DNA of 45,805 nucleotides, taken from sequence record NC_073314.1; one strand, given 5' to 3'. The position numbers and the translations under genes are program-made. Positions 5,114 through 37,745 of the stretch are shown one piece after another. The DNA is from Escherichia virus fEg-Eco19. Under the pieces are notes generated by a model. That model made no database searches, was not told where the DNA came from, and worked only from the letters and a program-made list of their open reading frames with translations. Position 1 is the first letter of the stretch. Every line of letters begins with the position of its first letter.

Positions 5114-5205
5114 ACATCCCGCCCAATCACCTTATATAATCCCTTTAGACGCGTAGGGCGCGTCTGGTGCGCTCTGATGGTCAGACGCATATGCAAGGGG
5201 ATTCT

Positions 5206-6998: not shown

Positions 6999-7010
6999 GA
7001 GGATTATTCA

Positions 7011-8492
7011 ATGTTAACTATGAACGGTCAGAATCAGGGTGTTAAGACAAAACACCGGGAATGGCTGCATCACTTCAATAAATGGCAGAAGGTGCGCCAC
7101 GCGCTGGAAGGCGACCTCATCCGTTACCTGCGCAATGTCGGGAAGAACGAGCCTGACCCGACCTATGCGGCACAGCGCCAGGAAGAATACGAGAACGGCG
7201 CTATCTGCTACAACTTCACTAAACGTACCCTGGCGGGGATGGTCGGCAGTGTTATGCGTAAAGACCCTGAGCAGATTATCCCGCCTGAACTTGAGTACCT
7301 GTTACGCAACGCTGACGGTTCAGGTGTCGGACTATGGCAGCACGCGCAGGATACGCTAATGGAGATTGATTCGGTGGGTCGCGGCGGGTTGCTGGTGGAC
7401 GCCCCTGAGACAGCTGCAGCAACGGCAGCCGAGCAGAACGCAGGGCTATTAAACCCGGTCATCGCATTCTATACCGCGGAGAACATCATCAACTGGCGAC
7501 TGGCTCGCGTCGGTTCAGTGAACCGCGTGACGATGGTTGTATTACGTGAGATATGGGAATACTCAGAACCTGGTGCAGAGTTCGAAACAAAGTTCGGCGA
7601 GCAATACCGCGTCCTTGACCTGATTGATGGGCGCTACCGCCAGCGCATTTACCGCTTCGATGCCGAAGGTGGCGCTCAGGATGAAGTAATCGAAATATTC
7701 CCGGAACTTGGCGAACAGTTACGCGGCAAAATCCCGTTCACGTTTATTGGCGCAAGCAATAACGACGCGACCATTGACGATGCGCCTTTGCTGCCGTTGG
7801 CCGAGCTTAATATCGGGCATTTCCGCAACAGCGCAGACAATGAGGAATCCAGCTTCGTTGTAGGTCAGCCAACTCTGTTCATCGCCCCTGGTGAGAACAT
7901 GAGCATGGAGCAATGGAAAGAAGCTAACCCCCACGGCGTGCGCATGGGGTCGCGTTCGGGCCATAACATCGGCTACGGCGGCAATGCGTTTCTGGTCCAG
8001 GCAGGAGAGAACAACCTCGCCAAACAGAACATGCTGGATAAAGAGAACCAGGCAATCCAGATTGGTGCACAGCTTATTACCCCGACGCAGCAAATCACCG
8101 CGGAATCGGCACGCCTGCAACGCGGCGCTGATACGTCTGTTATGGCAACAATCGCACGTAACGTAAGCATGGCGTATACCGATGCGCTGAAATGGGTTGC
8201 GGGGATGCTCGGACTTAGTGACGGTACTGAAATTGAGTTCAAACTGAATATGGAGTTCTTCCTGCAACCTATGACCGCCCAGGACCGCGCTCAGTGGATG
8301 GCGGATATTAACGCGGGCCTGTTACCGGCTACCGCTTACTATGCTGCGTTGCGTAAGGCAGGGGTAACTGACTGGACCGACGAGGATATTCAGAACGCTA
8401 TCGAAGACGCACCTCTGCCGTTAGGTGCTGTTACTCAGGTGGCGGGGGAGATTCCGCGGTCGGCGCAGCAACAGGACACCACTCAGCCGTAA
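7011..8492 (+). CDS. portal protein
   Basis: 493 aa, directly downstream of terL, AAGAGG RBS. Confidence 0.7.
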   Translation: MLTMNGQNQGVKTKHREWLHHFNKWQKVRHALEGDLIRYLRNVGKNEPDPTYAAQRQEEYENGAICYNFTKRTLAGMVGSVMRKDPEQIIPPELEYLLRNADGSGVGLWQHAQDTLMEIDSVGRGGLLVDAPETAAATAAEQNAGLLNPVIAFYTAENIINWRLARVGSVNRVTMVVLREIWEYSEPGAEFETKFGEQYRVLDLIDGRYRQRIYRFDAEGGAQDEVIEIFPELGEQLRGKIPFTFIGASNNDATIDDAPLLPLAELNIGHFRNSADNEESSFVVGQPTLFIAPGENMSMEQWKEANPHGVRMGSRSGHNIGYGGNAFLVQAGENNLAKQNMLDKENQAIQIGAQLITPTQQITAESARLQRGADTSVMATIARNVSMAYTDALKWVAGMLGLSDGTEIEFKLNMEFFLQPMTAQDRAQWMADINAGLLPATAYYAALRKAGVTDWTDEDIQNAIEDAPLPLGAVTQVAGEIPRSAQQQDTTQP

Positions 8493-8528: not shown

Positions 8529-9605
8529 ATGCTATTAACTTTAGTACCACAGGGTTTAACTATGAGCTTACTTACATCTCTAATCAGCCACCAGATTTGG
8601 CTGCAACGCACTGCATCCGGTGAGGTGAAAGACCTCGCGCCGTTCATTAAGGAGATGCGGGACGAAATAAAACGGCAGGTGCTGTTATTCGGTGACGACG
8701 GGCGGAGCACTGCGCGACTGAATAAACTGTTACTCGACCTTGAAGAAGCGCTAACCGGACTTACCGGCGATTGGCAAACAAAGCTGACAGAAGACCTTAT
8801 GGAACTGGCGGCGTATGAGGCCGAGTGGAATGTAAAGACACTGACCACCAACGTAGATGCGGAATTTGTTACGCCTACTGCCGAACAGGTGTGGTCCGCT
8901 GCCGAGTTTCAACCCTTATCATTAAGCGACAAGCCTGTTGACTTCACCAAGTTGATGTCTGGCTGGGGTGAAACAGAAGTGTCGCGCCTGGTAACCGGCG
9001 TTAAGATGGGCTTTGTACAAGGCCAGACAACACGGCAGATTGTTAAGAATGTTGTTGGCGCTGGTGGGCTGGCGGACATCTCTGAACGTAATGCTGCTAC
9101 TGTAATCCGCACCGCGCTGTCCCACGTATCCAACGAAGCCCGTAACGAGACGTACCGCCAGAACGACGACATCATCGAGAAGTACGAGTGGGTGTCAACG
9201 CTGGACAGCCGTACCAGTACGATTTGCAGAGCCAGAGATGGAATGACGTGGGAAATTGGTAAGGGGCCGATGCCCCCCGCCCATCCGAACTGTCGAAGTA
9301 CCACTGCGCCTGTAATCAGTTCCGAGTTCGACTTCCTGGATAAAGGAGCGAAGCGAGCGGCTAAAGGTGCGGAAGGCGGTACTCAGGTAAGCGCGGACAC
9401 CACTTACTACGAGTTCCTGAAACAACAACCGGCGTGGTTTCAGGATGAAGCGCTCGGCCCGGTGCGGGGTAAGATTTTCCGTAACAGCGGTATATCGCCG
9501 GAAGAGTTTCGCGTAATATCTGTAGATGGTTTCGGGAATCCGCTCACGCTTAAGCAGATGGCGGAACTCGATAAACGTGTTGCTGATTATCTGAAAGGGG
9601 AATAA
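8529..9605 (+). CDS. head morphogenesis protein (Mu F / SPP1 gp7-like)
   Basis: Position after portal; ICRARDGMTWEIGKGPMPPAHPNCRSTT region matches the conserved Cys/His region of this family. Confidence 0.65.
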   Translation: MLLTLVPQGLTMSLLTSLISHQIWLQRTASGEVKDLAPFIKEMRDEIKRQVLLFGDDGRSTARLNKLLLDLEEALTGLTGDWQTKLTEDLMELAAYEAEWNVKTLTTNVDAEFVTPTAEQVWSAAEFQPLSLSDKPVDFTKLMSGWGETEVSRLVTGVKMGFVQGQTTRQIVKNVVGAGGLADISERNAATVIRTALSHVSNEARNETYRQNDDIIEKYEWVSTLDSRTSTICRARDGMTWEIGKGPMPPAHPNCRSTTAPVISSEFDFLDKGAKRAAKGAEGGTQVSADTTYYEFLKQQPAWFQDEALGPVRGKIFRNSGISPEEFRVISVDGFGNPLTLKQMAELDKRVADYLKGE

Positions 9606-24269: not shown

Positions 24270-24920
24270 CTAACGACCCTCTTTTATCAAGGCGATAACG
24301 CGGTCGAACATACCTTCCCTTATCGCCTCTATCTCACATCTTCTTGATTCCGCCGCCCTTATCTTTTCAACAATGTAAGCATCTAGCGCTTCTTCCTGAG
24401 TTTCAAAACGTCCTAGATTAATAGTTTTTTTATCACAGCTCACTGAGGCTTTAAATTTACCTCTAGATTCTTCATAAAAAACACCTGTAGGTGTTCCACT
24501 ATTTTTCTTCTCCTTTAGGAAAACATTCAACCATTTCGGGATGAAAATGCAAGTGGTAGGGCTGTATACCTTATTAATACCAGAGAATATGTCCTTATCT
24601 AGCTCCCATCCCTCCACATAATTACAAAGCCACCATCTACGGAAGGACATAAACCTTTGCCACCCATGCCACACAGTTACATCCCTGTACGCAGGCCTTT
24701 TGTTTTTATACTCGGCGTCCACGCAACGTTGGATCATCCCTCGCCATGTAGCGTACGCCAGACACGTCTCACGGCTGCCGTTTATCTTGGGGCTAACCAC
24801 ATAATCGGCGTCATTTATGCCAAAACCACATATAGTTGCGCGCTTAGTTTTGCTGCTTTTGTTCGCAGGATAATTCGCACGCAGCCACATGCTCTTGGCT
24901 ACTTTTTCGGTTGGCATCAT
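24270..24920 (-). CDS. HNH endonuclease (YGGRGI/EGW-DKD-YSP family)
   Basis: Internal ATG with AGGAGA RBS; ICGFGINDADY...YVEGWELDKD...YSPTTCIFIP; paralog of 18559..19191; AT-rich. Confidence 0.55.
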   Translation of the reverse strand: MMPTEKVAKSMWLRANYPANKSSKTKRATICGFGINDADYVVSPKINGSRETCLAYATWRGMIQRCVDAEYKNKRPAYRDVTVWHGWQRFMSFRRWWLCNYVEGWELDKDIFSGINKVYSPTTCIFIPKWLNVFLKEKKNSGTPTGVFYEESRGKFKASVSCDKKTINLGRFETQEEALDAYIVEKIRAAESRRCEIEAIREGMFDRVIALIKEGR

Positions 24921-24955
24921 GTTAGTATCTCCTAAACTAATAGGAGTATCTTGCC

Positions 24956-25456
24956 ATGTCTTCTTTGAAATTTCCAGCAAGTTTAAAGCCGGTGGTGTCG
25001 AAAGGCTACTCAATGACCAGACGTAACAACGTCTGGAGCGTCGATTTAGCTGGCGGAGGTGTACGTCAGGGACGCGACACGTATTACGACGTGTTCCCGA
25101 TAAGCGTAACCCTGATTACATCGGCGCTAGGGCGGCAGGCGTTTCTGTCGTTCCTTGAGAAAGTCGATGGCGGTGCGTCAAGTTTCTGGATGGCACATGA
25201 CTTCGGCATGGGTATCGAGGATTACCAGGTAACAATCACGTCAACCATCGCTGAGTCCACCGAAGACGGGATTAACTGGACAATTACTTTCACGGCAACC
25301 GCTGAGAAATCGCCGTTCCAGGATCTTGAGAACCAGTGCCTGATTAACAATCTGCCGGATTTGTACGGTTGCTATGGTGACGGGCTGGGGTGTTTCCTTA
25401 AAGCCTACGGAACTGCACAATCAACGTTTCCACGAATTTGGGACCCGATGCAATGA
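24956..25456 (+). CDS. minor tail protein (distal tail, M-like by position)
   Basis: First tail gene after tape measure; AGGAG RBS. Confidence 0.45.
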   Translation: MSSLKFPASLKPVVSKGYSMTRRNNVWSVDLAGGGVRQGRDTYYDVFPISVTLITSALGRQAFLSFLEKVDGGASSFWMAHDFGMGIEDYQVTITSTIAESTEDGINWTITFTATAEKSPFQDLENQCLINNLPDLYGCYGDGLGCFLKAYGTAQSTFPRIWDPMQ

Positions 25457-25968: not shown

Positions 25969-26330
25969 ATATTAACGACTACACGGGCATACCTTACGAC
26001 TTTCGCAAGCGCAATTGCTGGCATCACGTGTGCATTGTCCGCGCGGATGCCGGGCTAGATACTCCGGCGTTCGACGTTACAAGCCCGACGGCAATTAACG
26101 AAGCGTTTGACGAAGGCCACCGCAACACAAAAGGGCTTACGAAAATTGATAAGCCTGAAAACTTCTGTGCGGTGCTTATGGGGTATCGCCGTGGGGGTCG
26201 TATCGTGTGGCACGCAGGAGTTTACTTCGACGGGATGGTCAGCCATTGCGAGCTTGCCTCACGTCAGGTACGGCTTGACAGGCTGGCGGACCTCAGAGAC
26301 ACGTACACGGAGATTGAATTTTGGCGATAA
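25965..26330 (+). CDS. tail assembly protein candidate (K-like, Cys/His motif)
   Basis: NCWHHV and later His residues suggest an NlpC/P60-like Cys-His core; position. Confidence 0.35.
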   Translation: MNINDYTGIPYDFRKRNCWHHVCIVRADAGLDTPAFDVTSPTAINEAFDEGHRNTKGLTKIDKPENFCAVLMGYRRGGRIVWHAGVYFDGMVSHCELASRQVRLDRLADLRDTYTEIEFWR

Positions 26331-28876
26331 TCCTGCACTACACGCGAAACGCTGATGGAGCTTTCGACCGTACAAAACACGTCGGGATGCCGATGGAGTT
26401 TGTCGTTAACCGTATCCCGGACGGCGTGCCGGTGCGCGTCTACCTGGGCGAGATTGGCGATGATACTGATGTCACCGACGACTTCGACGCGCTTAAAGAT
26501 GAAGACGCTGTGTACCACATTATTGAGGGTGCGGGTAGCGGGGCGCTCGGTGCGGTTAGTAAGGTGTTTGGTTTTATCCTTAAGCCAATCGCTAAGTTGT
26601 TTGGGTTGAACATGTCCGCAAACGCCAACTACACGGCGACTAACAACCAGACAACATCGCCTAATAACAGTCTCACAGACCGCTCCAACAAGCCGCGCCC
26701 CTATGAGCGCTCTTATGACATCTGCGGGACTGTGCAGACAATCCCTAACGACCTGATGCAGACGTATAAGGCGTTCAACTCCACGGGTGCTTTGCTGGAG
26801 TATTCGTACTATGATGCCGGGCGCGGGCATCTGCATATCGAGTCTGATGGCGTCACGGAAGGCGATACCCTGATAAGCGACATCACCGGTTCCTCTGTTG
26901 CTGTATATGCACCGTACACGTCACCGAACAACACCGCATCGCCGCAACTACAAATCGGCGACGTCATTGACCAGAAACTCTATGTGACATACTCCAACGA
27001 CGACGTTGACGGTATTGTACTGAAAGCGCCAAACGACATCGGGGCTAACCCAAGCGCCGACGGCACAGCCAAACGTATTTCAAACACCGGCTACATTTAT
27101 GACCCGTCCGGCGACTCTGCTTTTTCTGAGTTTCTTAGCGTCGGTGATGTCGCGGTGTTGAGCAACTTTGACGTTGCTGATGTCACTAACCTGAACGGCT
27201 CGTTTGAGGTTTTATACGTTGACGACTTCGAAGTAAGATTAGCCGTAAACGGGGCGTCTAACTGGGCCGCGTTGACTAGCGGGCAGACGTACACGCTAAC
27301 AGAGCGTTCAGATACGTTTATCGGCCCCAGCAACACCTATGACGTATCCCTGACCGACTGGTATTACATGGTGCGCGGGGAAGTTGACCGTGTGCTTGCT
27401 AACGTTGCAGGGCAAAACGGCCTCTACAAATATGACGGCGGCTATAATCGCACCAGCGTAACGGTAGAACTCCAGTACCAGATGATTGACTCTCAGCGTA
27501 ACCCGTTGAGCGACATTTACACGGTACGGGCTACGATTACTGGTAATAGCACGGATTACGTCGGTACGTCTATCTACGGGCAGTTGCCTACTGCATCGCG
27601 TTTCCGCGCCCGTATGCGCCGTGTAACGAATTTCGACAAGGACTACGACGGAACGGTAAGCGACGAGATAACCTTCATTAACCTGTACGGGCAGTCTCTG
27701 GACACAACCCCGCACTACGGCAACCGAACTACCGTACATTGTGCCCGTAAACAGACACCGCGTGCAGCCAGTATCGACAACCCGGAACTGCGCATGATCG
27801 CGACAGAGATGTGCTACAAATACTTAGGCAATGGGGTATTCGATACAGTAATGACCCCAAATACTCAAGCGGTGCAGTCGCTAATCAGACTGGCTCGCGA
27901 CCCGGTGGTGGGTAATCTGGAACTGACGACGGCAAACATGGATAAGTTGCTTGCCGTGCAAGAAGAAATTGAGTCCTATTTTGGCAGCGAATTAGCGGGA
28001 CAATTCTGCTACACGTTCGACGACTACGACACCACGATGCAGGACATCGTTCAGACTATAGCCGAAGCCGTGTTTTGTACTGCGTACCGTAAAGGTGCAG
28101 ACATTATGCTGCGTTTCGACCGCCCGGTTGCAGGGCCCGAGATGGTGTTCACTCACCGCAGCAAAACTACTGGTACAGAGAAATGGACCCGCACGTTTAA
28201 TGATTCTACGACCTACGATAGCCTGTCGTTCTCGTACATTGACCCGGATACTAACGTACAGGAATCTATTTATATCCCGGAAGAACTCGGCGCAAACACG
28301 GAGGAGTACGAATCGAAAGGCGTGCGTAACTATCAGCAGGCGTACTGGCTGGCGCGGCGTCGCTATCAGCGCAATGCGTTAAGTAAAGTTGTCGTAGAGT
28401 TCGAAGCTACCGAAGAGGGGGCACTCGCTACACCGGGCGGCGTAATCAGTGTCGTTAAAGGCTCGCGTATCGCGCCGCAGGATGGCTATGTTGTTGCCGT
28501 TAATGGGCTTACGCTGACACTGTCACAGCCGGTTACGTTTACCCCCGGCGATGACCACTCCATCATCCTCAAGAAGCGCGATGGCTCCGTGCAGAGTATT
28601 TCTGTTATCAAAGGAAACCACGACCGCGAAGTGATTATGCTCTCCGCGCCGGAGGAAGCAATATACACGGGGAATAGCGCACTAAAAACTGAGTTTTCAT
28701 TCGGCAACGAAGCAAGGCATAATGCACAGAAGATAGTTGTTTCTTCAATCGACCCGGGCGACGACCGCACGGTCAAGATTACAGGCTACAACTATGACGA
28801 CGGATTCTATAAATACGACGGCGTCGCTCCATACGGTAGCGGTTTCTCCGACGGATTCAGCAATGGTTTTAATTAA
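26321..28876 (+). CDS. tail tip / central tail fiber protein (J-like by position)
   Basis: 851-aa ORF following the minor tail genes. Confidence 0.45.
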   Translation: MAIILHYTRNADGAFDRTKHVGMPMEFVVNRIPDGVPVRVYLGEIGDDTDVTDDFDALKDEDAVYHIIEGAGSGALGAVSKVFGFILKPIAKLFGLNMSANANYTATNNQTTSPNNSLTDRSNKPRPYERSYDICGTVQTIPNDLMQTYKAFNSTGALLEYSYYDAGRGHLHIESDGVTEGDTLISDITGSSVAVYAPYTSPNNTASPQLQIGDVIDQKLYVTYSNDDVDGIVLKAPNDIGANPSADGTAKRISNTGYIYDPSGDSAFSEFLSVGDVAVLSNFDVADVTNLNGSFEVLYVDDFEVRLAVNGASNWAALTSGQTYTLTERSDTFIGPSNTYDVSLTDWYYMVRGEVDRVLANVAGQNGLYKYDGGYNRTSVTVELQYQMIDSQRNPLSDIYTVRATITGNSTDYVGTSIYGQLPTASRFRARMRRVTNFDKDYDGTVSDEITFINLYGQSLDTTPHYGNRTTVHCARKQTPRAASIDNPELRMIATEMCYKYLGNGVFDTVMTPNTQAVQSLIRLARDPVVGNLELTTANMDKLLAVQEEIESYFGSELAGQFCYTFDDYDTTMQDIVQTIAEAVFCTAYRKGADIMLRFDRPVAGPEMVFTHRSKTTGTEKWTRTFNDSTTYDSLSFSYIDPDTNVQESIYIPEELGANTEEYESKGVRNYQQAYWLARRRYQRNALSKVVVEFEATEEGALATPGGVISVVKGSRIAPQDGYVVAVNGLTLTLSQPVTFTPGDDHSIILKKRDGSVQSISVIKGNHDREVIMLSAPEEAIYTGNSALKTEFSFGNEARHNAQKIVVSSIDPGDDRTVKITGYNYDDGFYKYDGVAPYGSGFSDGFSNGFN

Positions 28877-28888
28877 AGAGGACTCTAT

Positions 28889-31225
28889 ATGTCAAGCGGA
28901 TGCGGTGACGTTTTAAGCCTGGCGGATTTACAGACCGCCAAGAAACACCAGATTTTCGAAGCCGAGGTTATCACCGGCAAATCCGGCGGTGTTGCAGGTG
29001 GCGCCGATATTGATTACGCGACAAATGCCGTTACAGGGCAGACCCAAAAGACGTTACCAGCCGTGTTGCGTGACGCTGGTTTTTCTCCGGTGTCATGGGA
29101 CTTTTCCACTGGTGGTACGTTAACCGCTAATGACCGCGACAAAGTGGTGTATGACCCTGTAAGCAAGACGTGGTACTCGTATACCGGGACTCTGCCGGTT
29201 GTTGTCCCCGCATCGTTTAACCCGGTTGGTAACGCTAACTGGAAGCCGCAGACTGACCCGGATTTGCGCAATGATTTATCCAGCACAGACAATGCGACAT
29301 TAGGTGATGCCATGGTCGGCGTCCGACAACCATTTACCGACGCTGTCGGCAGGACGCAACACGATAAAAATAGAGAAGTAGTTTCCGTTCTGGACTTCTA
29401 TTTAGGTACTGACCCTGATTACACAAACGCCCTTAACCGAGCGCTTACAGCTAGTAACGGGGTGCTTGTACCGCAAGGGGAGTATAGTACGTCGCTACTC
29501 TCCCACCCGACATGCTCTCTATTCGGAACAGGGGGTGGGGTTTTAAAACAATCAAACGATTCTGGAAACCACTTAATCTTTGATAAACCTGCAGGAGGGC
29601 TACTTAGCACCCTGAGTATTGTAGGAAATAAGGCAACGGACTTCACACAAGGTCAGCAGGTTTCCTTCGCCGGTGGGCAGGACGTTACTATTAAAGGTAT
29701 TGATTTTAAAAATGCAAAGGGAACTGGATTTAGTTTAATAGCATACCCTAGTGATGAGGGTCCGTCTGGATACATTGTAAGCGGCATACGGGGCGACTAC
29801 TCCGGGTATGCTACAAATAAAACAGCGGGGTGCGTGCTGTTTGAGTCCGCAAGTAATACTATAATCAACGATGTTATCGCCCGAAACTACCCCAAATTCG
29901 GGGCGGTTGAGTTGAAAACAGATGCTAAATGTAATGTTGTTAGTGGCGTCATTGGGCAAAGCTGTCAGCACGTTGTTTATAATGGCACCGGGACGACCAA
30001 TGCCCCTAGCAGTAATATTATCAGTAATGTTGTTGCTAATAACGCTAAGTATGCCGCTGTGGTCGCCGGCAAGGGTTCAGGTAATCTGGTGACAAATGTT
30101 GTAGCTGATTACTCCTCCTCCGAGGCCACGCAAGCACACGGCGTTACATTACAAGGCAACTATAATGCCGCTGATAATATTCTAATGGTTGGGTGCAGCG
30201 GAACTAATAGTTTAGGGCAAACGCAAACCGCGACTTCTATTAGGTTTTTAGACAGAGCTAGTAATAACTACGCATCGGTTTTCCCTATGTATAGTGCTTC
30301 CGGGGTTGTTACACTAGAGACAGGGACTACCCGTAACTTTGTGGAAGTAAAGCACCCTGGACCCAAGAACAGTCTTCTTAGTTCACTATCTACTATAACC
30401 GGGGTCTCTAGCATTGATGGTACTACCACCAGTAACGTGGTACACGCCCCCGCTATAGGACAATACATAGGGTCCATGTCCGGTAGGTTTGAGTGGTTCA
30501 CTAAGTATATAGATACTTCTGCATTGCCTTTTGTGACAGCTGATAAATTCAGACTAATTTCCGATGGGGCTACATCTTTGGCTATTGGCGGAGGTACGAC
30601 CTCTCAGATAAAATTACTCACATCTGATGGTACTTCTCGAACTATTTCTCTGGTTAATGGTAATTTACGCTTAGCCTCTGACGCATCGGCGTATATTCAA
30701 ATAGCCCCGACGGCTATTACACCATCCAGTGCAAACACCGTCGCTATCGGGTCGGCAAGTCGCGCTTTGTCCGGCGGATTCACTCAAACAGCGTTTACGG
30801 TTACGTCTGACGAGAGAGCCAAGACACTACCCCTGGAATTAACTGACGCTATGTTAGACGCTTGGGCTGAAGTTAATTTAGTTCAATATAAGTACCTGGA
30901 TAGGGTTGCAGAGAAGGGGGAGGATGCAGCTAGGTGGCACTTTGGAGTAGTAGCCCAACGAGCAATTGAGGCGTTTACCCGGCACGGGTTGGACGCGACT
31001 AAGTACGGTTTCCTGTGCTACGATAAGTGGGAAGCGTCTCCGGAAATTATTGATGAGGAATCTGGGGAAGTATTAACAAAAGCTACGGCGGCAGGGGAGC
31101 GGTATGGTATTCGTTATGATGAGGTATTGATATTAGAGGCTGCGTTACAGCGACGTAAAGCAGCTCAGTTAGAGAAAAGGATTATAGCGCTTGAGACATT
31201 AGTGGCTACCCTGACAAACAGTTAA
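28889..31225 (+). CDS. tailspike/tail fibre with beta-helix core and C-terminal intramolecular chaperone (S74-like) domain
   Basis: Central repeats (NIISNVVANNAKYAAVVAGKGSGNLVTNVVAD) typical of right-handed beta-helix; C-terminus ERAKTLP...WHFGVVAQ...ILEAALQRRKAAQLEKRIIALE resembles the autocleaving chaperone domain of endosialidase-type spikes. Confidence 0.65.
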   Translation: MSSGCGDVLSLADLQTAKKHQIFEAEVITGKSGGVAGGADIDYATNAVTGQTQKTLPAVLRDAGFSPVSWDFSTGGTLTANDRDKVVYDPVSKTWYSYTGTLPVVVPASFNPVGNANWKPQTDPDLRNDLSSTDNATLGDAMVGVRQPFTDAVGRTQHDKNREVVSVLDFYLGTDPDYTNALNRALTASNGVLVPQGEYSTSLLSHPTCSLFGTGGGVLKQSNDSGNHLIFDKPAGGLLSTLSIVGNKATDFTQGQQVSFAGGQDVTIKGIDFKNAKGTGFSLIAYPSDEGPSGYIVSGIRGDYSGYATNKTAGCVLFESASNTIINDVIARNYPKFGAVELKTDAKCNVVSGVIGQSCQHVVYNGTGTTNAPSSNIISNVVANNAKYAAVVAGKGSGNLVTNVVADYSSSEATQAHGVTLQGNYNAADNILMVGCSGTNSLGQTQTATSIRFLDRASNNYASVFPMYSASGVVTLETGTTRNFVEVKHPGPKNSLLSSLSTITGVSSIDGTTTSNVVHAPAIGQYIGSMSGRFEWFTKYIDTSALPFVTADKFRLISDGATSLAIGGGTTSQIKLLTSDGTSRTISLVNGNLRLASDASAYIQIAPTAITPSSANTVAIGSASRALSGGFTQTAFTVTSDERAKTLPLELTDAMLDAWAEVNLVQYKYLDRVAEKGEDAARWHFGVVAQRAIEAFTRHGLDATKYGFLCYDKWEASPEIIDEESGEVLTKATAAGERYGIRYDEVLILEAALQRRKAAQLEKRIIALETLVATLTNS

Positions 31226-31231
31226 ATAAAC

Positions 31232-31258
31232 AAGGCCCCAAACGGGGCCTTTTCTCTA
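31232..31258 (+). terminator. rho-independent terminator
   Basis: AAGGCCCC-aaac-GGGGCCTT followed by TTCTC. Confidence 0.55.
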
Positions 31259-31389: not shown

Positions 31390-31875
31390 TCACGTCGTTT
31401 CTCCGTGGTTTTCATGAAATCCGTAAGCAGCCTCCGCGGCTTTACGCGCGGCAACAGCTTCGTCAAAATTATCAAACTGTCCTAGATGTATTTTTCTTCT
31501 GTCGACTTTTATCTCTGCCACCCATTTGTTTCTTCTCTTTTCCCGCCATACACCAAGAGCGCCGCTAGTATTGTTTACCCCTATTGATGCGTTGCGGCTA
31601 TTTTCGGTGTTGGTAACTTTCCGTAGGTTGCGTATTCGGTTATCAGTTCGTATATGATTAATGTGGTCTATCTGTTCCTGTGGCGTAAGTTGGTTATCTG
31701 GATTGCAGATATTCCATGCTAACCGGTGTGCTAGTTCTAGTTTTCCGTTTACTCGGATACGAATGTACCCATCCCGTGGACAAAAGCATCCCGCTTTCTT
31801 TCCAATAAAACCCCTACGTTTTGTTTCAGCCCATGTGAAAATACCGGTTTCAGGGTCGTATGATACCTTGCTCAT
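31390..31875 (-). CDS. HNH homing endonuclease with AP2-like domain
   Basis: AHRLAWNICNPDN...IDHINHIRTDNRIRNLRKVTNTENSRN, then GALGVWRE...AAYGFHENHG. Confidence 0.75.
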   Translation of the reverse strand: MSKVSYDPETGIFTWAETKRRGFIGKKAGCFCPRDGYIRIRVNGKLELAHRLAWNICNPDNQLTPQEQIDHINHIRTDNRIRNLRKVTNTENSRNASIGVNNTSGALGVWREKRRNKWVAEIKVDRRKIHLGQFDNFDEAVAARKAAEAAYGFHENHGETT

Positions 31876-33296
31876 TTCTTACTCCTACGTTTCATATACT
31901 CAAGGAGGATATCCTGCACCTGTTTTTTCTCGTCTGTGCGTGAAGTGACAACAGAATCCAACGTATCTTTAGCAATAATCTTGTAGATAAAAACAGGGCG
32001 ATTATACCCCGATTGCTTTTGCCGTACTGGCCCTATGCGCTCTACAACCTGTAAATAGTGTTCGAGGTTCCACCCCTGACTGAAAAATGCCATATGATGG
32101 CCGCCGTCTTGTAGCGATATGCCGTGCCCGGCTGACGCGGGGTGCACGCATAAGATTTCGATTTCACCGCGGTTCCACGCTTCCATCTGCTTATTGCCCT
32201 TCGCACCTTTGGCGAACGCCTGTGCCTGAGGGAATCGCTTAAGGATACGCTCAAGTTCGTGCTTAAACTGATAAGCTACCAGTAACGGTGCACCCTGTAG
32301 CTCCTCCACAATCGACTCTAGCGCATCCAGTTTCGTGTCGTGCACTTTCTCCCATTCTTTGGTTGCTTCACCGTCCGGCCCTGATACATACACAGCACCA
32401 GATGCAATCTGTAAACACTTCGACGTCTTTGCTGCCGCGTTAGCCGCTTCAACTTCTCCGCTCTCAAGTTCCGCGAATAACTTTTCCTCCATATCGATGT
32501 ACGCCTGGCGCGCCTTCTTCGGCAGGTCGATTTCAACAGGGACGATAACGGGCGCTTCGCAGCCAAACCACTCGGCAGCGTCAATCGTGAGACTGATGTC
32601 CTTCATCTTCTGGTGAATTTCATTATCCGCGCCAGGGCGCGCATGATACTCACGTGCCATAGCCGATTTGCCTTTCTGGACAGAGTTAAACCATCGGTCG
32701 GTGAATGCCGTGTATGAAGAACCGAGGCGCTCGCCAGCGTCGATAAACCAGTTCTGACCCCACAAGTCTTTGAGGCCGTTCGGTGACGGCGTTCCCGTCA
32801 GGTTGATGAAACGCTTAACCTTACCGAATGCCACTTTACTAAGCGCCTTTGCCCGCTTGCTGCCACCTGAACGGCTACGGAAAGATTTCAGTTTCGTGCT
32901 TTCATCGGCAACAATAACCGTAAAAGGCCAGTCGTCTTTGCCGTAATAGTCAATAAGCCACTCGATAACTTCGTAGTTTGTACAGACCACATTAGCGTCT
33001 GACTCCAGCGCCGCGATGCGGCGCTTCTCCGAACCAGTTGCATCTACGACGCGCAGACAAGGGAAGTTCCAACGTGCCTGTTCCGCGGGCCACGTACCGG
33101 ATGCAACACGTAAAGGAGCCAGAATTAATACCCGGTCGTAGTCCGTAAGTTGGCCGTTGCGGAACAGTCGGTTGAGAACCCACAACGTTGACCCCGACTT
33201 GCCGCTGCCCATCGAAGCCCAAATATTACAGCGAGGGTGCTGCAACATGAACGAAGTCATGAGCTTTTGGTACTCCCTGCGGGTAAATTTAGCCAT
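31872..33296 (-). CDS. SNF2-family (superfamily 2) helicase
   Basis: Walker A MGSGKSGS, motif II VIVADESTKLK, C-terminal QVVERIGPVRQ. Confidence 0.65.
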   Translation of the reverse strand: MAKFTRREYQKLMTSFMLQHPRCNIWASMGSGKSGSTLWVLNRLFRNGQLTDYDRVLILAPLRVASGTWPAEQARWNFPCLRVVDATGSEKRRIAALESDANVVCTNYEVIEWLIDYYGKDDWPFTVIVADESTKLKSFRSRSGGSKRAKALSKVAFGKVKRFINLTGTPSPNGLKDLWGQNWFIDAGERLGSSYTAFTDRWFNSVQKGKSAMAREYHARPGADNEIHQKMKDISLTIDAAEWFGCEAPVIVPVEIDLPKKARQAYIDMEEKLFAELESGEVEAANAAAKTSKCLQIASGAVYVSGPDGEATKEWEKVHDTKLDALESIVEELQGAPLLVAYQFKHELERILKRFPQAQAFAKGAKGNKQMEAWNRGEIEILCVHPASAGHGISLQDGGHHMAFFSQGWNLEHYLQVVERIGPVRQKQSGYNRPVFIYKIIAKDTLDSVVTSRTDEKKQVQDILLEYMKRRSKK

Positions 33297-33786
33297 TATT
33301 AACCCCGTGGTTGGTATGGAAACCGTATTCTATTTCTGCGGCTTTACGTACCGACAATGCCTCTTCGAACGTCTTAAATCTGCCTAGTTCCATAAGTATT
33401 GTTTTTACACGTATGCGCGCTCGCCAAATACCTTCTTTTATCAAAAATTCCACACCAGTTGCGCCGGTCTTATTACATGTGTACAAGCTCTTGTTCTGCA
33501 TGTTTTGTTGCGTTGTAACCTTACGTATGTTGTCCCCTCTGTTGTTAGTTTTGTCATGATCTATGTGGTCTATTTCATCGTCCGGCCCTAATAAATCATC
33601 AGGGTGTAACGTATCCCACGCTAAACGATGCGCCTGATACATCTTTCCGTCTATTTTTATCCTGACGTAGCCGTTACTTTTACTGCCGCCCGCTATGGAG
33701 CCAGCGGAACGACCTCGCGGGGCAACCACCCATGTGAAAATCCCGGTGTCTGGGTTATAGTCCAGTCTGCCGTCGAAGCATTTCAT
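33289..33786 (-). CDS. HNH homing endonuclease with AP2-like domain
   Basis: AHRLAWDTLHPDD...IDHIDHDKTNNRGDNIRKVTTQQN, then GATGVEF...AEIEYGFHTNHG. Confidence 0.75.
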   Translation of the reverse strand: MKCFDGRLDYNPDTGIFTWVVAPRGRSAGSIAGGSKSNGYVRIKIDGKMYQAHRLAWDTLHPDDLLGPDDEIDHIDHDKTNNRGDNIRKVTTQQNMQNKSLYTCNKTGATGVEFLIKEGIWRARIRVKTILMELGRFKTFEEALSVRKAAEIEYGFHTNHGVNNG

Positions 33787-34494: not shown

Positions 34495-37400
34495 TTACTT
34501 AGCATAGCGTTTCAACTCCGCACCTTCCGCTACAAGAGGGAAGCCTTCTGCCCACTCCGGCAACGCGCACATTAATTTCTCCAGTTCAGCCACCGTGTAC
34601 TCTGGGGTGTCCGGAGTTTCACACACCAGTTCATCGTGTACCGAAAGCACGATAGGATACCCACCACCCTCAACGTTAATCATCGCATATGCCAGTAAAT
34701 CACGGCACAGCGCCTGAACAATGTTTTCACAGGCTTTGCCGCCGTGTGTGTATAGAGTTGTCCATTGGCGGGTTAACTGGTTTTCACCCTGATACTTGAT
34801 TCGCACATTCGTGTTCATCCGTCCGTCTTCGTCTGTTTCCTTTGTCACGCTAACGCCGATTCCCGGATACGAGAGGATACGGCCCGACGGCAACTCCATA
34901 CACAACCACCAACCAGGAACCTTCCTGCCGGATGAATCAAATTCTACAGTACGCCATATGCGGATAGCCCTTTCCCCATTCCTGCGCAAGTGTGCCCCCG
35001 CCCAAAATTCACGACCGGGATTACGAACAGCAGCTAAAATTCCGTCTTTAAGGTCGCGCCAGAACGCTACTGTTTCCGGGTGTGACTCGCGCCACATACG
35101 CTTGATTGCGTCACATGTGCGCCACACTTTCTTATCAAGAATATACGATGGTCGGTCATCCTTTTCACCCGGATGCGGTGGTCGCTTGGCTTCCTGAATA
35201 CGCGCCCACTCATACCCACGCGCGGTAGCAGCCCAGATGTGGTCGGGGAAAGTCCCGTCCATTGTTTTTGCCATCTCAATAAGGTCAAGACCTAAGTTTT
35301 TAGCGAACGTAACGAATGCTCCGACGCCGCCTTCGTATCCGAGTCCAAGCTCGCAGTTATGCGCCACAAGAAAGCCAGAGTCGGAAGCGATAAGAAAACG
35401 GTTGCCGTCTTCCACATCAATCAGGTCGTACACTGGCTCGCAGTAGGTTAATTTCCCGTTCAAGCTCAGCAATGCGGGCAACGGCTGCATCATACTTTCG
35501 TTGAAGCTCAGGTATTCGCCGTCTGTTACGGCAGTTTTCAGAACGGCTGACAAACCGAATGTTTCCAGGTTCGTAGTTACCGTCTGTGTCGATTCTATCC
35601 ATTTCGAGGTTCGGGTCATCCCAGCCTTCCAGAGTTTGAACATATCTAAGAAAAGACCTTTTATCAGTCCTCCACTGGTCAAATACCGTGATGCCTCTTG
35701 CCCCATAGTTTTTATAACCCTTATCCCTGGGGCTTGTTGTCCGCGTGATTGCCGCGGACAGCCGGTTGAGTAATCGCGTTCTGTGCACATCATCCGGCAT
35801 TGCGTCTTCGTAGCAGAAATATTGTTTACGATATTTTTTTGTTGCTTCAAGGGCGCAACGGTTGCATTGAGTGGTTTTACCTGCTCTGACATTGTCATAA
35901 TAGACCCGCCCCGGCATCTCTCCGCAATCACATTGGACGAGTAGTTGTCTTTGGCCTTGTCGTTTTGGTAACTCGCGCAGGATAACCAGGCGTCCATACC
36001 TATCTCCAGGGCGCGGTCCATCATATATTTGTTTGAAACGAGTTGCTTTGCCTGCTTCCAGGAATGCGTCAAGATTTTGTGGTCTTCGGTCATTAGCACC
36101 CCGTCCACATTTATCACCGGTTTCCACCCCATAAGGTGCGCGCCTTTTGTATTCACCCATTTTTCGCCACTCCATACTTTATCTGTCGATGTGACCGCCA
36201 TAATATCCTTAAATCCGCCATAGGTCAAAACTTGGGTATGGCGGTGAAGGCAGGCTTTACCAATCTGGCGTAAGTCTTTGCGTTCTTTCTTAATGTAATC
36301 CGGCTCCATACCAAACATCTTACCCGCGGTTACGCAGTAAATATCCAACCCGGCGCGGAACGTATCGAGCGCGGTTTCTTCACCAGCCAGCCACGCAAGC
36401 CCTCGGCCTTCAACGTTAGAGTAATCGGCAACAACAAACTTATGTCCGGCTTCCGGTATGATGCAGCTACGAACGGTCGATGCCGTTAGCTTGGCCACAT
36501 CGAAACGGCGATGGGCGCGACCCTTAAGTAACGCCGAAATGCCTTTATCCAGCTCATCATCGTGATAGTAACCGCGTGCCAGGTTCTGCGGCTGGAAGCC
36601 TTTACCAGCCCATCGCAGAGTACGTTTTGCCCCACCGTACTGCAAGCAACCACGACGGCGGTCGTCGGACGAGCGGCCTAACAGCAATGGGTTATATTTC
36701 GTTGACGCGGTAGACGCGGCCCCGAGGCGCATTTCGATAATCGCGCGAGCGTCGTCTGGTAAATCATCATCCGAAAGCAGGTCATTAAGCGTCGACTTCT
36801 GCGCATTGTGGATGCGGTGCGCTGGGGCAAGCTCACGCAGAATCGGCAGAAAGTCCTTACCAGTAAGCGAGCCGCCGTATTTGCGTTGGGCTTCTTCCTG
36901 CAACCGTGCCTTGTGCTTCTCCACAGCTTCAATCGCGGCTTCTGCCAGGGCAACGTCAACCTTAAACCCGCGGTCGTTGATTAACTGGTCCAGTTCCAGT
37001 ACACGGTCTTCGAACTCGGAGTTACCCCACCGCGGCAGCTTATGGAAGACTTCACGCATTGCGGTGATGTCACTCACGGCGTATTTGATGAACAGTACCC
37101 ACTCGTCCGGGTGTGTTTCAGCGGTGTAGCGACGGATTTTGTAGTTCTTCGGCGTCGGTTTAGAGAAACGCTGAATCAGCGCCTTGCCTCGTTTGTCTTT
37201 CGCGTTGTCTGCTGACACGCCCAGCACTTCGCACAACGCATCGAGGGAACCCGGCAGCGCGTGACGAAACGCCCAAATCATCGTATCAATGGTGTTGCCT
37301 ACAGGAATATCAAAGTCCCAGCAGTGTTTCATGATGAGCCTATCGAACATTGAGCCGTTGTGCCATACCATCTTGATGCGACTGTTCGGCTTAACCAGAC

Positions 37401-37593
37401 GGCGTAGAGCGCGGTGTAAATCACCCGGCATGTCGCTGCCGTCGGTGCAATCCCATACCTGCACAGGCTCGTCGTCAAAGGCATAGGTACAGATGAGCAC
37501 TTCGGTTGACGGGTGTTCGGCGTAAGCGTAGGAGCCGACTTTCTTCAAATCGGCTTCGGAGAATGTTTCAAAGTCCAGGTATAAGTAGCTCAT
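34495..37593 (-). CDS. family A DNA polymerase with 3'-5' exonuclease domain, interrupted by an intein in motif B
   Basis: Exo motif LYLDFETFS, motif A VVADYSNVEGRGLAWLAGEE, motif B split as RQIGKA | intein | CELGLGYEGG; likely start is the internal ATG (MSYLYLDFET) with AAGGA RBS, track ORF starts at an upstream TTG. Confidence 0.85.
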   Translation of the reverse strand: MSYLYLDFETFSEADLKKVGSYAYAEHPSTEVLICTYAFDDEPVQVWDCTDGSDMPGDLHRALRRLVKPNSRIKMVWHNGSMFDRLIMKHCWDFDIPVGNTIDTMIWAFRHALPGSLDALCEVLGVSADNAKDKRGKALIQRFSKPTPKNYKIRRYTAETHPDEWVLFIKYAVSDITAMREVFHKLPRWGNSEFEDRVLELDQLINDRGFKVDVALAEAAIEAVEKHKARLQEEAQRKYGGSLTGKDFLPILRELAPAHRIHNAQKSTLNDLLSDDDLPDDARAIIEMRLGAASTASTKYNPLLLGRSSDDRRRGCLQYGGAKRTLRWAGKGFQPQNLARGYYHDDELDKGISALLKGRAHRRFDVAKLTASTVRSCIIPEAGHKFVVADYSNVEGRGLAWLAGEETALDTFRAGLDIYCVTAGKMFGMEPDYIKKERKDLRQIGKACLHRHTQVLTYGGFKDIMAVTSTDKVWSGEKWVNTKGAHLMGWKPVINVDGVLMTEDHKILTHSWKQAKQLVSNKYMMDRALEIGMDAWLSCASYQNDKAKDNYSSNVIAERCRGGSIMTMSEQVKPLNATVAPLKQQKNIVNNISATKTQCRMMCTERDYSTGCPRQSRGQQAPGIRVIKTMGQEASRYLTSGGLIKGLFLDMFKLWKAGMTRTSKWIESTQTVTTNLETFGLSAVLKTAVTDGEYLSFNESMMQPLPALLSLNGKLTYCEPVYDLIDVEDGNRFLIASDSGFLVAHNCELGLGYEGGVGAFVTFAKNLGLDLIEMAKTMDGTFPDHIWAATARGYEWARIQEAKRPPHPGEKDDRPSYILDKKVWRTCDAIKRMWRESHPETVAFWRDLKDGILAAVRNPGREFWAGAHLRRNGERAIRIWRTVEFDSSGRKVPGWWLCMELPSGRILSYPGIGVSVTKETDEDGRMNTNVRIKYQGENQLTRQWTTLYTHGGKACENIVQALCRDLLAYAMINVEGGGYPIVLSVHDELVCETPDTPEYTVAELEKLMCALPEWAEGFPLVAEGAELKRYAK
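35356..36252 (-). mobile_element. intein (299 codons) in DNA polymerase motif B
   Basis: Hint blocks in polymerase frame: N-terminal CLHRHT, block B LMTEDHKILT, blocks F/G VYDLIDVEDGNRFLIASDSGFLVAHN followed by Cys. Confidence 0.7.
35417..36175 (-). CDS. HNH endonuclease ORF inside the intein, in a different frame from the polymerase
   Basis: 252-codon ORF offset from polymerase frame (37647-36175=1472, not a multiple of 3); GYKNYGARGITVFDQW...EGW...DRIDTDGNYEPGNIRFVSRSENCRNRRR; shares EGW...DKD...YSP motif with 18559..19191 and 24270..24920. Confidence 0.55.
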   Translation of the reverse strand: MEWRKMGEYKRRAPYGVETGDKCGRGANDRRPQNLDAFLEAGKATRFKQIYDGPRPGDRYGRLVILRELPKRQGQRQLLVQCDCGEMPGRVYYDNVRAGKTTQCNRCALEATKKYRKQYFCYEDAMPDDVHRTRLLNRLSAAITRTTSPRDKGYKNYGARGITVFDQWRTDKRSFLRYVQTLEGWDDPNLEMDRIDTDGNYEPGNIRFVSRSENCRNRRRIPELQRKYDAAVARIAELEREINLLRASVRPD

Positions 37594-37745
37594 TTCTTTT
37601 TCCTTAAATCCAGTGCCTTCGTTTCGCTTAATCTTATTTTCATACAATCACGACAAATCCACACATGTCTGTACCCGGCGCGGTACTCATCCGCGTACCA
37701 CGGAAGTGGCTTCATGTATCGGTATACGTGCTTGCAGAAAAACAT
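37590..37745 (-). CDS. small Cys-rich protein (51 aa), coupled to polymerase start
   Basis: Translated by eye (MFFCKHVYRYMKPLPWYADEYRAGYRHVWICRDCMKIRL...); stop overlaps polymerase ATG as ATGA. Confidence 0.25.
   Translation of the reverse strand: MFFCKHVYRYMKPLPWYADEYRAGYRHVWICRDCMKIRLSETKALDLRKKK

Follow-up and report, generated by a model that had tools for sequence, protein, structure and literature searches.

The tailspike encoded in the window, by which we mean the whole 45,805-nucleotide stretch of Escherichia virus fEg-Eco19 (NC_073314.1) that was analysed, consists of two evolutionary parts and not of three: an anchor of 130 residues and a cassette that runs from about aa 131 to the stop codon (aa ~131-778). 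Very probably, this protein forms a trimeric two-module spike in which a Kagunavirus anchor carries a K5-lyase cassette acting on the K5 capsule. Judged by its sequence, it would add a new and divergent siphovirus member to the family of K5-lyase tailspikes, modular but otherwise ordinary.

Gene, module layout and exchange boundaries

The following features are referred to throughout:

26321..28876, + strand: J-like tail-tip or central fibre gene, directly upstream of the tailspike gene, with weak Phage-tail_3 and GpJ FNIII matches
28889..31225, + strand: tailspike gene, ATG start, 778 aa, precursor of 81.9 kDa (ORF list)
28889..29278, + strand: genus-conserved N-terminal anchor, aa 1-130, whose last residues form the neck helix DPDLRNDL (aa 123-130)
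29277..29322, no strand: left exchange zone, in which DNA alignments to Kagunaviruses bearing other spikes break off (pairwise blastn)
29279..29416, + strand: opening segment of the cassette (aa 131-176), made up of a linker and a cap ahead of the beta-helix, of low model confidence
29417..30805, + strand: K5-lyase-type catalytic body, aa 177-639, a right-handed beta-helix (~aa 190-490) followed by a trimer-interlocking C-terminal stalk
30806..31222, + strand: intramolecular chaperone domain, aa 640-778, 15.7 kDa, Pfam Peptidase_S74
31228..31251, no strand: right exchange boundary, which holds the hairpin AAGGCCCCAAACGGGGCCTT (31232-31251)

The open reading frame at 28889-31225 is real; its product is the tailspike of a siphophage of the genus Kagunavirus (Guernseyvirinae). 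The 778-aa frame given in the original prediction is found exactly in the ORF list, on the plus strand, and its reading as a tailspike is supported by nucleotide matches to annotated tailspike genes and by a shared locus. Nine phage records, including those of fFiEco02, fPoEco01, KMB36 and PDP21P8, hold annotated tailspike genes with 97-99% nucleotide identity, and that of fFiEco02 lies at the equivalent locus, where the homologue of the J-like gene is annotated as 'putative tail protein'. The order of J-like tail-tip gene and tailspike is common to the Kagunaviruses compared, and the BASEL paper places the tailspike genes of Kagunavirus directly downstream of the J-like gene (PMC11990801). 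The minor-head-protein intein of the vKMB36 type is absent here, the ORF at 8529..9605 encoding 358 aa as in K1G. A polymerase insertion, which is a separate find, was met while checking for this intein.

With regard to the anchor, the match of about 200 records of Kagunavirus and related phages to the tailspike gene is limited to nt 1 to ~390. Protein identity to the spikes of Golestan, 22664BS2 and Ivi amounts to 90-100% in blocks of 20 aa as far as aa 120, and no more than 20% is left by aa 141. The AlphaFold2 model of the anchor exhibits a small beta domain (aa 66-120) and a helix (aa 124-130), and Pfam Tail_spike_N gives a weak, sub-threshold match at aa 77-112. Residues 1-130 are presumed to be the virion-attachment domain. 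The linker and cap that follow (aa 131-176) are without counterpart in KflA, the K5 lyase of coliphage K5A, in the alignment; pLDDT is below 50 over aa 127-162, and aa 132-187 yield short matches to the P22-family spikes 4urr, 2vbk and 7sg7 (E ~5e-9).

The blastn alignments end at 29277 for Golestan and 22664BS2, at 29285 for Ivi and at 29322 for Klebsiella phage D1, while homology to K1G breaks earlier, at 29083. Homology of 90-96% identity restarts at 31232 for phage D1, at 31220 for K1G and, for Golestan, 22664BS2 and Ivi, only past the stop codon, at 31228. The hairpin AAGGCCCCAAACGGGGCCTT at this boundary, picked up in a terminator scan and on direct reading, is a candidate terminator that would serve the convergent genes on both sides; when the DNA was scanned for promoters and terminators, the counts were no higher than in shuffled sequence. 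The 3' end of the gene showed no DNA-level match to any other Kagunavirus spike and matches only K5-lyase spikes.

The chaperone domain is not a conserved end but moves with the enzyme, given that core and chaperone domain are alike in their divergence from KflA (60.0% and 57.8% identity, respectively), that their GC3 is equal and that genus homology is regained only after the stop codon. The idea that the C-terminus is an independent and conserved module was rejected, since the 3' DNA, the boundaries, the KflA divergence and GC3 are all against it. The original prediction had described a swapped domain between conserved ends. Its 5' side stands, with ~390 nt conserved across the genus, but the 3' end is not conserved; similarly, the receptor-degrading part has indeed been swapped in behind a conserved anchor, but as a single cassette that includes the chaperone and not as a flanked core. 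Uniform composition together with full-length collinear homology to one known tailspike was not what was found: composition is uneven, the sole homologue with an established function, KflA, spans just aa 177-768, and matches over the full length were limited to uncharacterised spikes from within this phage's own lineage.

GC drops from ~0.52-0.53 to ~0.45-0.47 between roughly 29500 and 30900. The anchor has a GC of 0.531 and a backbone-like GC3 of 0.562, the core (aa 177-639) values of 0.466 and 0.415, and the C-terminal domain (aa 640-778) values of 0.480 and 0.446. The predicted AT-richer centre is thus confirmed by GC and GC3 per segment. The compositional signal of the core is real but modest, as its plain GC lies at the 9th percentile among same-size windows. 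GC3 differs between the anchor and the remainder of the gene (chi-square p = 0.0055), and it is indistinguishable between core and C-terminal domain (p = 0.58). The cassette (aa ~131-778), which is AT-richer than the anchor, has a GC3 of 0.42, lower than in any other large ORF of the window apart from a single HNH endonuclease gene (reference: 35 large ORFs in the window, mean 0.540, sd 0.062). Kagunavirus spikes generally show an anchor GC of 0.51-0.55 and a GC of 0.46-0.48 in the remainder, irrespective of the enzyme. Recent transfer from a K1-5-like podovirus, whose kflA genes have a GC of 0.45-0.46, similar to that of the cassette, was considered as an explanation for the low GC. It was rejected because DNA identity to kflA is only ~65%, because intermediate homologues are lacking and because GC is low in all Kagunavirus spike bodies; a search of 5.8 billion proteins returned no homologue between 60% and 96% identity.

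Catalytic body, chaperone domain and proposed mechanism

Two further features lie within the cassette:

29909..29980, + strand: putative active-site stretch with FGAVELK (E341, K343) and QHVxYNGT (H361, Y364)
30806-30808 and 30821-30823: S640 and K645, the dyad at the predicted scissile bond T639-S640

By homology, aa 177-639 are a member of the K5 (heparosan) lyase tailspike family of KflA and ElmA. The KflA structure 2x3h was matched over aa 176-640 (E 9e-178), the 843-aa spike 9vvr gave a PDB profile match with E 1e-230, and PHROG 14895 was matched with E 4e-233. In blastp, aa 177-768 are collinear with KflA 42-630 at 59.5% identity; the 60.0% given above for the core covers beta-helix and stalk. 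The beta-helical centre that had been predicted was recovered by AlphaFold2, which models ~25 short strands over aa 192-487 (pLDDT 80-96), and by Foldseek, whose top match is 2x3h (E 2.9e-42, TM 0.73; second-best match 7e-8). The monomer model is poor over aa 530-650, as expected of an interlocked trimer.

The motifs FGAVELK and QHVxYNGT are kept in the present protein and in the five aligned with it, namely those of fFiEco02, KflA, K1-5 gp46, Kayfunavirus R1 and Gamaleyavirus UE-S5a. The catalytic residues of KflA are reportedly E206, K208 and Y229 (Thompson et al. 2010); KflA does have E, K and Y at these positions in the alignment, and the equivalents here would be E341, K343 and Y364. In the core, 156 of the 418 positions that are invariant in the four other K5 lyases compared differ.

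The C-terminal domain was identified as Peptidase_S74 (PF13884) over aa 640-701, with E 1e-13 and 51.8 bits against a cut-off of 22, and aa 608-769 match 3gud (E 4e-25) and 3gw6 (E 4e-22). The cleavage motif TVT-SDERAK places S-x4-K at the first residue of the chaperone domain. The dyad of endoNF, S911/K916, has identical spacing (PMC8326128), as has T5 pb1, with its Thr1263-Ser1264 bond and Lys1269 (PMC4690869). Furthermore, the KflA crystal chain stops at the equivalent of S640. From these likenesses we infer autocleavage at T639-S640. A chaperone C-terminus of the endosialidase type, as originally proposed, is hence present with its Ser-Lys dyad intact. A wider relationship to endosialidases was rejected: no match to the endosialidase catalytic domain, a sialidase beta-propeller, was obtained in Pfam or PDB, the catalytic body is unrelated, and the likeness to the K1G endoN is confined to anchor and chaperone domain.

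In the mechanism that we propose, the anchor (aa 1-130) would fix the spike to the tail tip beside the J-like protein, and the cassette would have been acquired as one unit comprising the lyase beta-helix, the interlocking stalk and its own chaperone. The chaperone domain would bring three chains together; as soon as the stalk has folded correctly, T639-S640 would be cut by the S640/K645 dyad, which would free the 15.7-kDa chaperone and leave a mature subunit of 66 kDa. The mature spike would then bind the E. coli K5 capsule (heparosan, -4GlcA-beta1,4-GlcNAc-alpha1-) and, by presumed lyase chemistry, cut it by beta-elimination at the conserved E341/K343/Y364 site, which would let the phage tunnel to the outer membrane.

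Substrate, host range and alternative readings

It had been stated that the substrate cannot be inferred from the sequence. This does not hold, given the collinearity with KflA at 59.5% and the host range, confined to K5-typed strains, of a phage whose spike is 98.3% identical. This phage is the sister Kagunavirus PDP21_P8, whose spike differs at 13 of 778 residues; the host-range evidence is that of PDP21_P8 and not of the window's own phage. Its isolation host, PDP21, is typed K5 in the supplementary data. In the published matrix of ~402 strains, PDP21_P8 infects nine, all of which are typed K5 (hypergeometric P ~1e-13), and none of another K type. The nine strains comprise five to six O-types (O10, O2, O25, O75, O18 and the O17-group) and three phylogroups, and each is infected by at least one K5-lyase podovirus, with T205_P4 infecting all nine. 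PDP21_P8 infects nine of at least 15 K5 strains identified, mostly with the lowest scores (1-2), which could in part reflect lysis from without. The matrix hence documents K5 restriction, not efficient infection of every K5 strain.

Depolymerase specificity can shift at 40% divergence. The same fold and ancestry could serve another substrate, either another group 2 capsule or an O-antigen, the homology to K5 lyases being merely historical. The 40% divergence from KflA, the 156 changes among the 418 K5-lyase-invariant core positions and the use of O-antigen by other Kagunaviruses (PMC11990801) would fit this reading. Nevertheless, we consider it improbable, as the hosts of PDP21_P8 are uniformly K5 across varied O-types and three phylogroups, no other K type is infected in the matrix and the proposed active-site motifs are intact. 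The low scores on most K5 strains could also point to a spike that binds K5 but is catalytically dead or weak, with heparosan as a receptor that is not depolymerised. However, E341, K343, H361, Y364 and the surrounding motifs are conserved, and the close relative vKMB36 forms plaques with halos, which its authors regarded as indicating a depolymerase (PMC11162368). Since Kagunaviruses are reported to be highly sensitive to restriction-modification (PMC11990801), the low plating can be explained in this way, and a dead or weak enzyme is even a little less probable than another substrate.

Least probable of all is an arrangement of three independent modules, in which conserved N- and C-ends surround a swapped core of unknowable substrate. 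Peptidase_S74 domains do sit on many unrelated spikes, including the K1G endosialidase spike, whose C-terminal domain is 38% identical, and there is a local GC peak of 0.527 at 30700-30999. Against this, the DNA of the 3' end is common to no Kagunavirus with a different core, core and chaperone are equal in KflA divergence and GC3, genus homology is resumed only after the stop codon and the substrate is identifiable. A further reading, which we hold to be unlikely though not to the degree of these three, is that the Kagunavirus branch has shifted its specificity or mode on heparosan-type chains, for example in processivity, product size or action on host heparan sulfate. For the K5-lyase-like fibre of ES17, binding or tolerance of heparan sulfate, in its unsulfated N-acetylated domains, has been proposed (PMC7885116). 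If this were true, the protein would constitute an enzymological tool of its own, or a factor for adherence to mucosa, and not a plain KflA equivalent. The two-module spike acting on the K5 capsule remains the reading that we prefer.

Significance and comparison with known systems

On this preferred reading, a receptor can be named for a group of siphophages comprising fFiEco02, fPoEco01, vKMB36, PDP21_P8, the VIPECO phages, EF2-1 and the present genome. The spikes of the fFiEco02-like group have so far been annotated merely as 'tailspike', and the depolymerase of vKMB36 was said to resemble no other depolymerase (PMC11162368). Since K5 capsules are common in extraintestinal pathogenic E. coli and in strain lineages of the matrix such as ST69, ST73 and ST131, the capsule assignment may aid the choice of therapeutic phages. 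The heparosan-lyase family, of which ElmA is used for heparosan trimming in bioengineered-heparin work (PMC12834895), gains a third, roughly equidistant branch. With regard to spike evolution, chaperone and enzyme body move together, with one boundary at the neck helix and the other at the stop codon and candidate terminator.

Among Kagunaviruses, the O-antigen tailspikes (Golestan, 22664BS2, Ivi and BASEL Bas70-76) share the position and, at 90-100% identity over aa 1-120, the anchor. They show the same composition pattern but have other receptor-degrading bodies, and those of Golestan and Ivi, unlike the present spike, are without a Peptidase_S74 ending. The K1G tailspike (63D-type endosialidase, ORF27) occupies the same locus, is 95-100% identical over its first ~60 aa and shares the Peptidase_S74 end; in contrast, its enzymatic part is a sialidase directed at the K1 capsule, with no homology between aa ~140 and 610.

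A prophage of E. coli encodes an 820-aa 'tail fiber domain-containing protein' that is ~57% identical to both KflA and the present protein. It aligns with aa 152-768, having the same cassette and chaperone domain, but exhibits another N-terminal anchor, and its gene adjoins the lysis genes of the prophage. Judged by its length, this protein is probably ElmA, the chromosomal heparosan lyase. ElmA has been described as a prophage K5 lyase (PMC3594737; PMC12834895). If the 820-aa protein is ElmA, two proven K5 lyases are as mutually distant as the present protein is from either, so that its divergence would be tolerable for a K5 lyase.

Parallels in organisation are offered by the 843-aa Kayfunavirus spike (vB_EcoP-R1; PDB 9vvr) and the 784-aa Gamaleyavirus 'K5 lyase' (UE-S5a), which likewise join a chassis-specific N-terminus to a cassette of K5 lyase and chaperone. 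Their cassettes are ~92-93% identical to KflA, whereas the Kagunavirus cassette forms a separate branch at 54-60%. KflA itself and its near-twin K1-5 gp46 have the same beta-helix, FGAVELK and QHVxYNGT, the TVTSD-R-K motif and the chaperone. KflA occurs in podoviruses and begins with a 41-aa N-terminal peptide; the present spike occurs in a siphovirus and bears instead the 130-aa Kagunavirus anchor and a ~46-aa linker, and it differs from KflA further by 40% divergence, a 3-aa insertion and eight extra residues at the C-terminus of the chaperone.

Spike gene and its boundaries

The window is the near-complete genome of a Kagunavirus (Guernseyvirinae) siphophage. The tailspike ORF was found in the ORF list with exactly the coordinates and length of the original prediction; it and the surrounding features are as follows:

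26321..28876: J-like tail-tip gene, directly upstream of the spike gene
28889..31225, + strand: tailspike gene, ATG start, 778 aa
31232..31251: hairpin AAGGCCCC-AAAC-GGGGCCTT, perfect 8-bp GC-rich stem, 6 bases past the spike stop codon

A spike following the J-like gene is common to the window, fFiEco02, Golestan, Ivi and K1G, and this locus is the usual Kagunavirus tailspike position (PMC11990801). The gene recurs, with the annotation 'tailspike', in nine phage records, with 97-99% of nucleotides identical; its carriers include fFiEco02, fPoEco01, vB-Eco-KMB36, Kagunavirus PDP21P8, two VIPECO phages and EF2-1.

For some 200 records of Kagunavirus and related phages, the match is confined to the first ~390 nucleotides of the gene. 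When the surrounding 9 kb was aligned pairwise with phages bearing other spikes, the left end of homology fell at 29277 (Golestan, 22664BS2), 29285 (Ivi), 29322 (Klebsiella phage D1) or 29083 (K1G), and homology was found to resume at 31228, 3 bases past the stop codon (31220 for K1G). Compared with other spikes in blocks of 20 residues, the protein is 90-100% identical as far as aa 120 and at most 20% by aa 141, the predicted neck helix DPDLRNDL (aa 123-130) lying just before the left boundary. The right boundary coincides with the hairpin, which has T-rich sequence on either side and could serve two converging transcription units as a bidirectional terminator. At the 3' end, the 420 nt encoding the chaperone domain have no match in Kagunaviruses beyond this spike lineage; the matches, at ~66%, are with K5-lyase spikes of Vectrevirus, Kayfunavirus and Gamaleyavirus. 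Given these boundaries and a 3' end unlike that of other Kagunaviruses, the spike gene is a two-part mosaic of an anchor (aa 1-130) and a single cassette. The modular spike with a swapped receptor-binding or depolymerase part that had been predicted is thus supported, whereas the proposed core between two conserved ends is not, as genus homology returns only beyond the stop codon.

Base composition of the spike gene regions
Anchor, aa 1-130: GC 0.531, GC3 0.562
Core, aa 177-639: GC 0.466, GC3 0.415
Chaperone domain, aa 640-778: GC 0.480, GC3 0.446

Within the gene, GC drops from ~0.52-0.53 to ~0.45-0.47 (overall genome, 0.502). The plain GC of the core is merely at the 9th percentile among equal-sized windows, but in GC3 the spike from aa 131 onwards lies below all 35 large ORFs of the window (mean 0.540, sd 0.062) bar one HNH endonuclease gene. 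Since GC3 differs between the anchor and the remainder (chi-square p = 0.0055) and not between the core and the C-terminal domain (p = 0.58), the shift is real but one-sided: the 5' end is backbone-like and everything downstream is AT-richer. The compositionally distinct core of the original prediction therefore holds against the anchor and not against the C-terminal end. Kagunavirus spikes carrying quite different enzymes exhibit the same pattern (0.51-0.55, then 0.46-0.48), so low GC is a general property of such distal modules and no mark of this particular swap.

Between ~28400 and 31225, an interval comprising the last ~500 nt of the J-like gene and the whole spike, identity to fFiEco02 is 98-100%, with flanks at only 74-95%; in the right third of the genome, no relative above ~92% was found in the phage collection. 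This suggests, as a second level of modularity, that the complete spike gene has recently passed from one diverged Kagunavirus backbone to another. Amino-acid changes within the lineage are concentrated in the catalytic body (11/13 relative to PDP21P8, 17/18 relative to fFiEco02); the anchor, with 0-2 differences, and the chaperone domain, with 0-1, are nearly invariant.

Intein-like insertion and HNH_3/AP2-domain ORFs

ORFs with HNH_3 or AP2 domains, and an intein-like insertion, were identified in the window:

24270..25013, - strand: AP2-domain ORF between the tape-measure gene and the distal tail genes
31390..31875, - strand: HNH_3 + AP2-domain ORF of homing-endonuclease type, 161 aa, immediately downstream of the spike
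33289..33786, - strand: second HNH_3 ORF
34495..37647, - strand: family A DNA polymerase ORF, 1050 aa
35356..36252, - strand: intein-like insertion inside the polymerase ORF, 299 aa

The ORF next to the spike has the lowest GC3 of the 35 large ORFs (0.389), and none of fFiEco02, K1G, Golestan, 22664BS2, Ivi and Klebsiella phage D1 has an equivalent of 31420-31871. The intein-like insertion begins with a cysteine (CLHRHTQ...), ends in ...VAHN and is followed by a cysteine; its removal regenerates exactly the fFiEco02 junction, IRQIGKA/CELGLGY. The fFiEco02 and K1G polymerases, without the insertion, have 733 and 726 aa. Its DNA is 97-98% identical to a polymerase-gene segment of many Salmonella Jerseyvirus phages (SETP3, LPSE1), with matches in 147 Salmonella and only 9 Escherichia records, and is far closer to these phages than the surrounding backbone is. 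The 900-bp intein reported for the gene of vKMB36's minor head protein (PMC11162368) is absent from the window, where ORF 8529..9605 encodes 358 aa, as in K1G.

Identity of the cassette

Residues 177-767 match the 632-position PHROG 14895, 'tail spike protein' (E 4e-233). Pfam recognized Peptidase_S74 at aa 640-701 (1e-13) and, below threshold, Tail_spike_N at aa 77-112. The best solved-structure match is 9vvr, an 843-aa tail spike (E 1e-230); 2x3h, the K5 (heparosan) lyase KflA of coliphage K5A, covers aa 176-640 (E 9e-178), and the chaperone domains of GA-1 (3gud) and endoNF (3gw6) come next. By blastp, aa 177-768 are collinear with KflA 42-630, KflA chaperone domain included, at 59.5% identity. 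In the family alignment, core and chaperone domain have diverged equally from KflA (60.0% and 57.8% identity), which argues that the two were inherited as one unit. The motifs FGAVELK and QHVxYNGT, which contain E341, K343, H361 and Y364, are kept in the query and in 5/5 aligned family members. In the alignment, E341, K343 and Y364 correspond to KflA E206, K208 and Y229, which Thompson et al. reportedly proposed in 2010 as the beta-elimination residues.

An AlphaFold2 monomer model built from a 19-sequence alignment contains a confident beta-helix over aa ~190-490 (pLDDT 80-96), in agreement with the predicted central beta-helix; confidence is poor at aa 530-650, as expected of a stalk that folds only as a trimer. 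The first Foldseek match is 2x3h (E 2.9e-42, TM 0.73), far above generic beta-helix spikes and lyases. Among the checks originally proposed, domain-wise homology searches thus led to a KflA-type K5-lyase cassette and structure prediction to a beta-helix like that of 2x3h.

The core alone, searched against 5.8 billion proteins, returned the Kagunavirus type at 96-98%, all KflA-type lyases at 57-60%, and Leclercia and other enterobacterial relatives at 43-51%, and no protein fell in the gap from 60% to 96%. On their three chassis (Vectrevirus/Zindervirus, Kayfunavirus, Gamaleyavirus), the KflA-type cassettes share 92-99% identity. A prophage-borne 820-aa homologue, full-length in 68/5426 complete E. 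coli genomes, is ~57% identical to KflA and likewise to the query; it has the length of ElmA and is possibly this protein. ElmA is a chromosomal, prophage-derived heparosan lyase (PMC3594737; PMC12834895). If the two are the same, two proven K5 lyases are as distant from each other as the query is from either, which would make retained specificity at 60% identity plausible. In the E. coli Ecol_AZ162 prophage segment, the 820-aa homologue gene (5137..7599) is a mosaic of like design. In hundreds of other E. coli genomes, prophage spikes that bear the annotation endosialidase or glycosyl hydrolase family 28 share its first ~600 nt at 91-95%.

The predicted endosialidase-type C-terminal chaperone is supported by the Peptidase_S74, 3gud and 3gw6 matches and by Ser640 and Lys645, which FTVT-SDERAK places at S-x4-K spacing. 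The catalytic dyads of endoNF (S911/K916) and MyRF (S587/K592) have the identical spacing (PMC8326128), as does S1264/K1269 of T5 pb1, in which the Thr1263-Ser1264 bond is cut and the serine departs with the chaperone (PMC4690869). K5 lyases are listed among the families with this domain (PMC4690869 and PMC8326128). Analogous cleavage of the query would leave aa 1-639 (66.2 kDa) as the mature subunit and release aa 640-778 (15.7 kDa).

Substrate, proposed working and relation to known systems

The spike of PDP21_P8 (OZ035783) differs from the query at 13/778 residues, of which the core holds 11 and the chaperone domain none. Its isolation host, PDP21, was typed as capsule K5 (Gaborieau et al. 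supplements, bioRxiv 10.1101/2023.11.22.567924). Across all rows of the infection matrix of these authors (~402 strains), PDP21_P8 scored above 0 on nine strains only (ECOR-11, -49, -50, -51, -64, IAI81, NILS18, NILS27 and PDP21), all nine of type K5, with a chance probability of 1e-13 to 3e-12 given 19-25 K5 strains. These hosts are spread over phylogroups A, D and B2, with antigens O10, O2, O25, O75, O18 and O17-group, so the O-antigen cannot be the common receptor. At least one K5-lyase podovirus infects each of them as well, T205_P4 infecting 9/9 (compared were PDP21_P1/P3/P5/P6, T205_P4/P5 and DIJ06_P1, all but P5 being K5-lyase matches among the matches listed). Six K5 strains (ECOR-55, IAI68, IAI79, IAI80, NILS12, NILS25) are infected by podoviruses but not by PDP21_P8, whose scores are mostly low (1-2). 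This host range, which is that of a sister phage and not of the window's own phage, shows K5 restriction rather than universal K5 infectivity; the incomplete infectivity is in keeping with the report that Kagunaviruses are highly sensitive to restriction-modification (PMC11990801). The substrate had been considered impossible to infer from sequence; collinearity with KflA and the K5-only host range of this sister phage now indicate otherwise.

On the basis of homology, fold, motifs, boundaries and K5-restricted infection by a phage with a near-identical spike, the following working can be proposed. The anchor would fix the spike trimer to the tail tip, and the chaperone domain would nucleate trimerisation and folding of the interlocked stalk before being cut off at T639/S640. 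The mature spike could then bind heparosan along the beta-helix and cleave the GlcNAc-alpha1,4-GlcA linkage by beta-elimination, thinning the capsule so that the tail tip may gain the outer membrane.

The depolymerases of vKMB35 and vKMB36 were described as having no amino-acid similarity to any other depolymerase (PMC11162368), so the K5-lyase assignment appears not to have been made there; the vKMB36 spike is 98.2% identical in nucleotides to 28889..31225, and spikes of this type are ~59% identical to KflA. The exchange of tailspike modules is well known, as are K5 lyases and Peptidase_S74 chaperones, and K1G already presents a Kagunavirus chassis with a capsule depolymerase. Modestly new are the placing of this lineage of Kagunavirus spikes in the K5-lyase family, where it forms a third, divergent branch, its link to a published K5-restricted host range, and the demonstration that the chaperone domain is part of the swapped cassette, which shares with KflA both the catalytic body and KflA's own chaperone domain.
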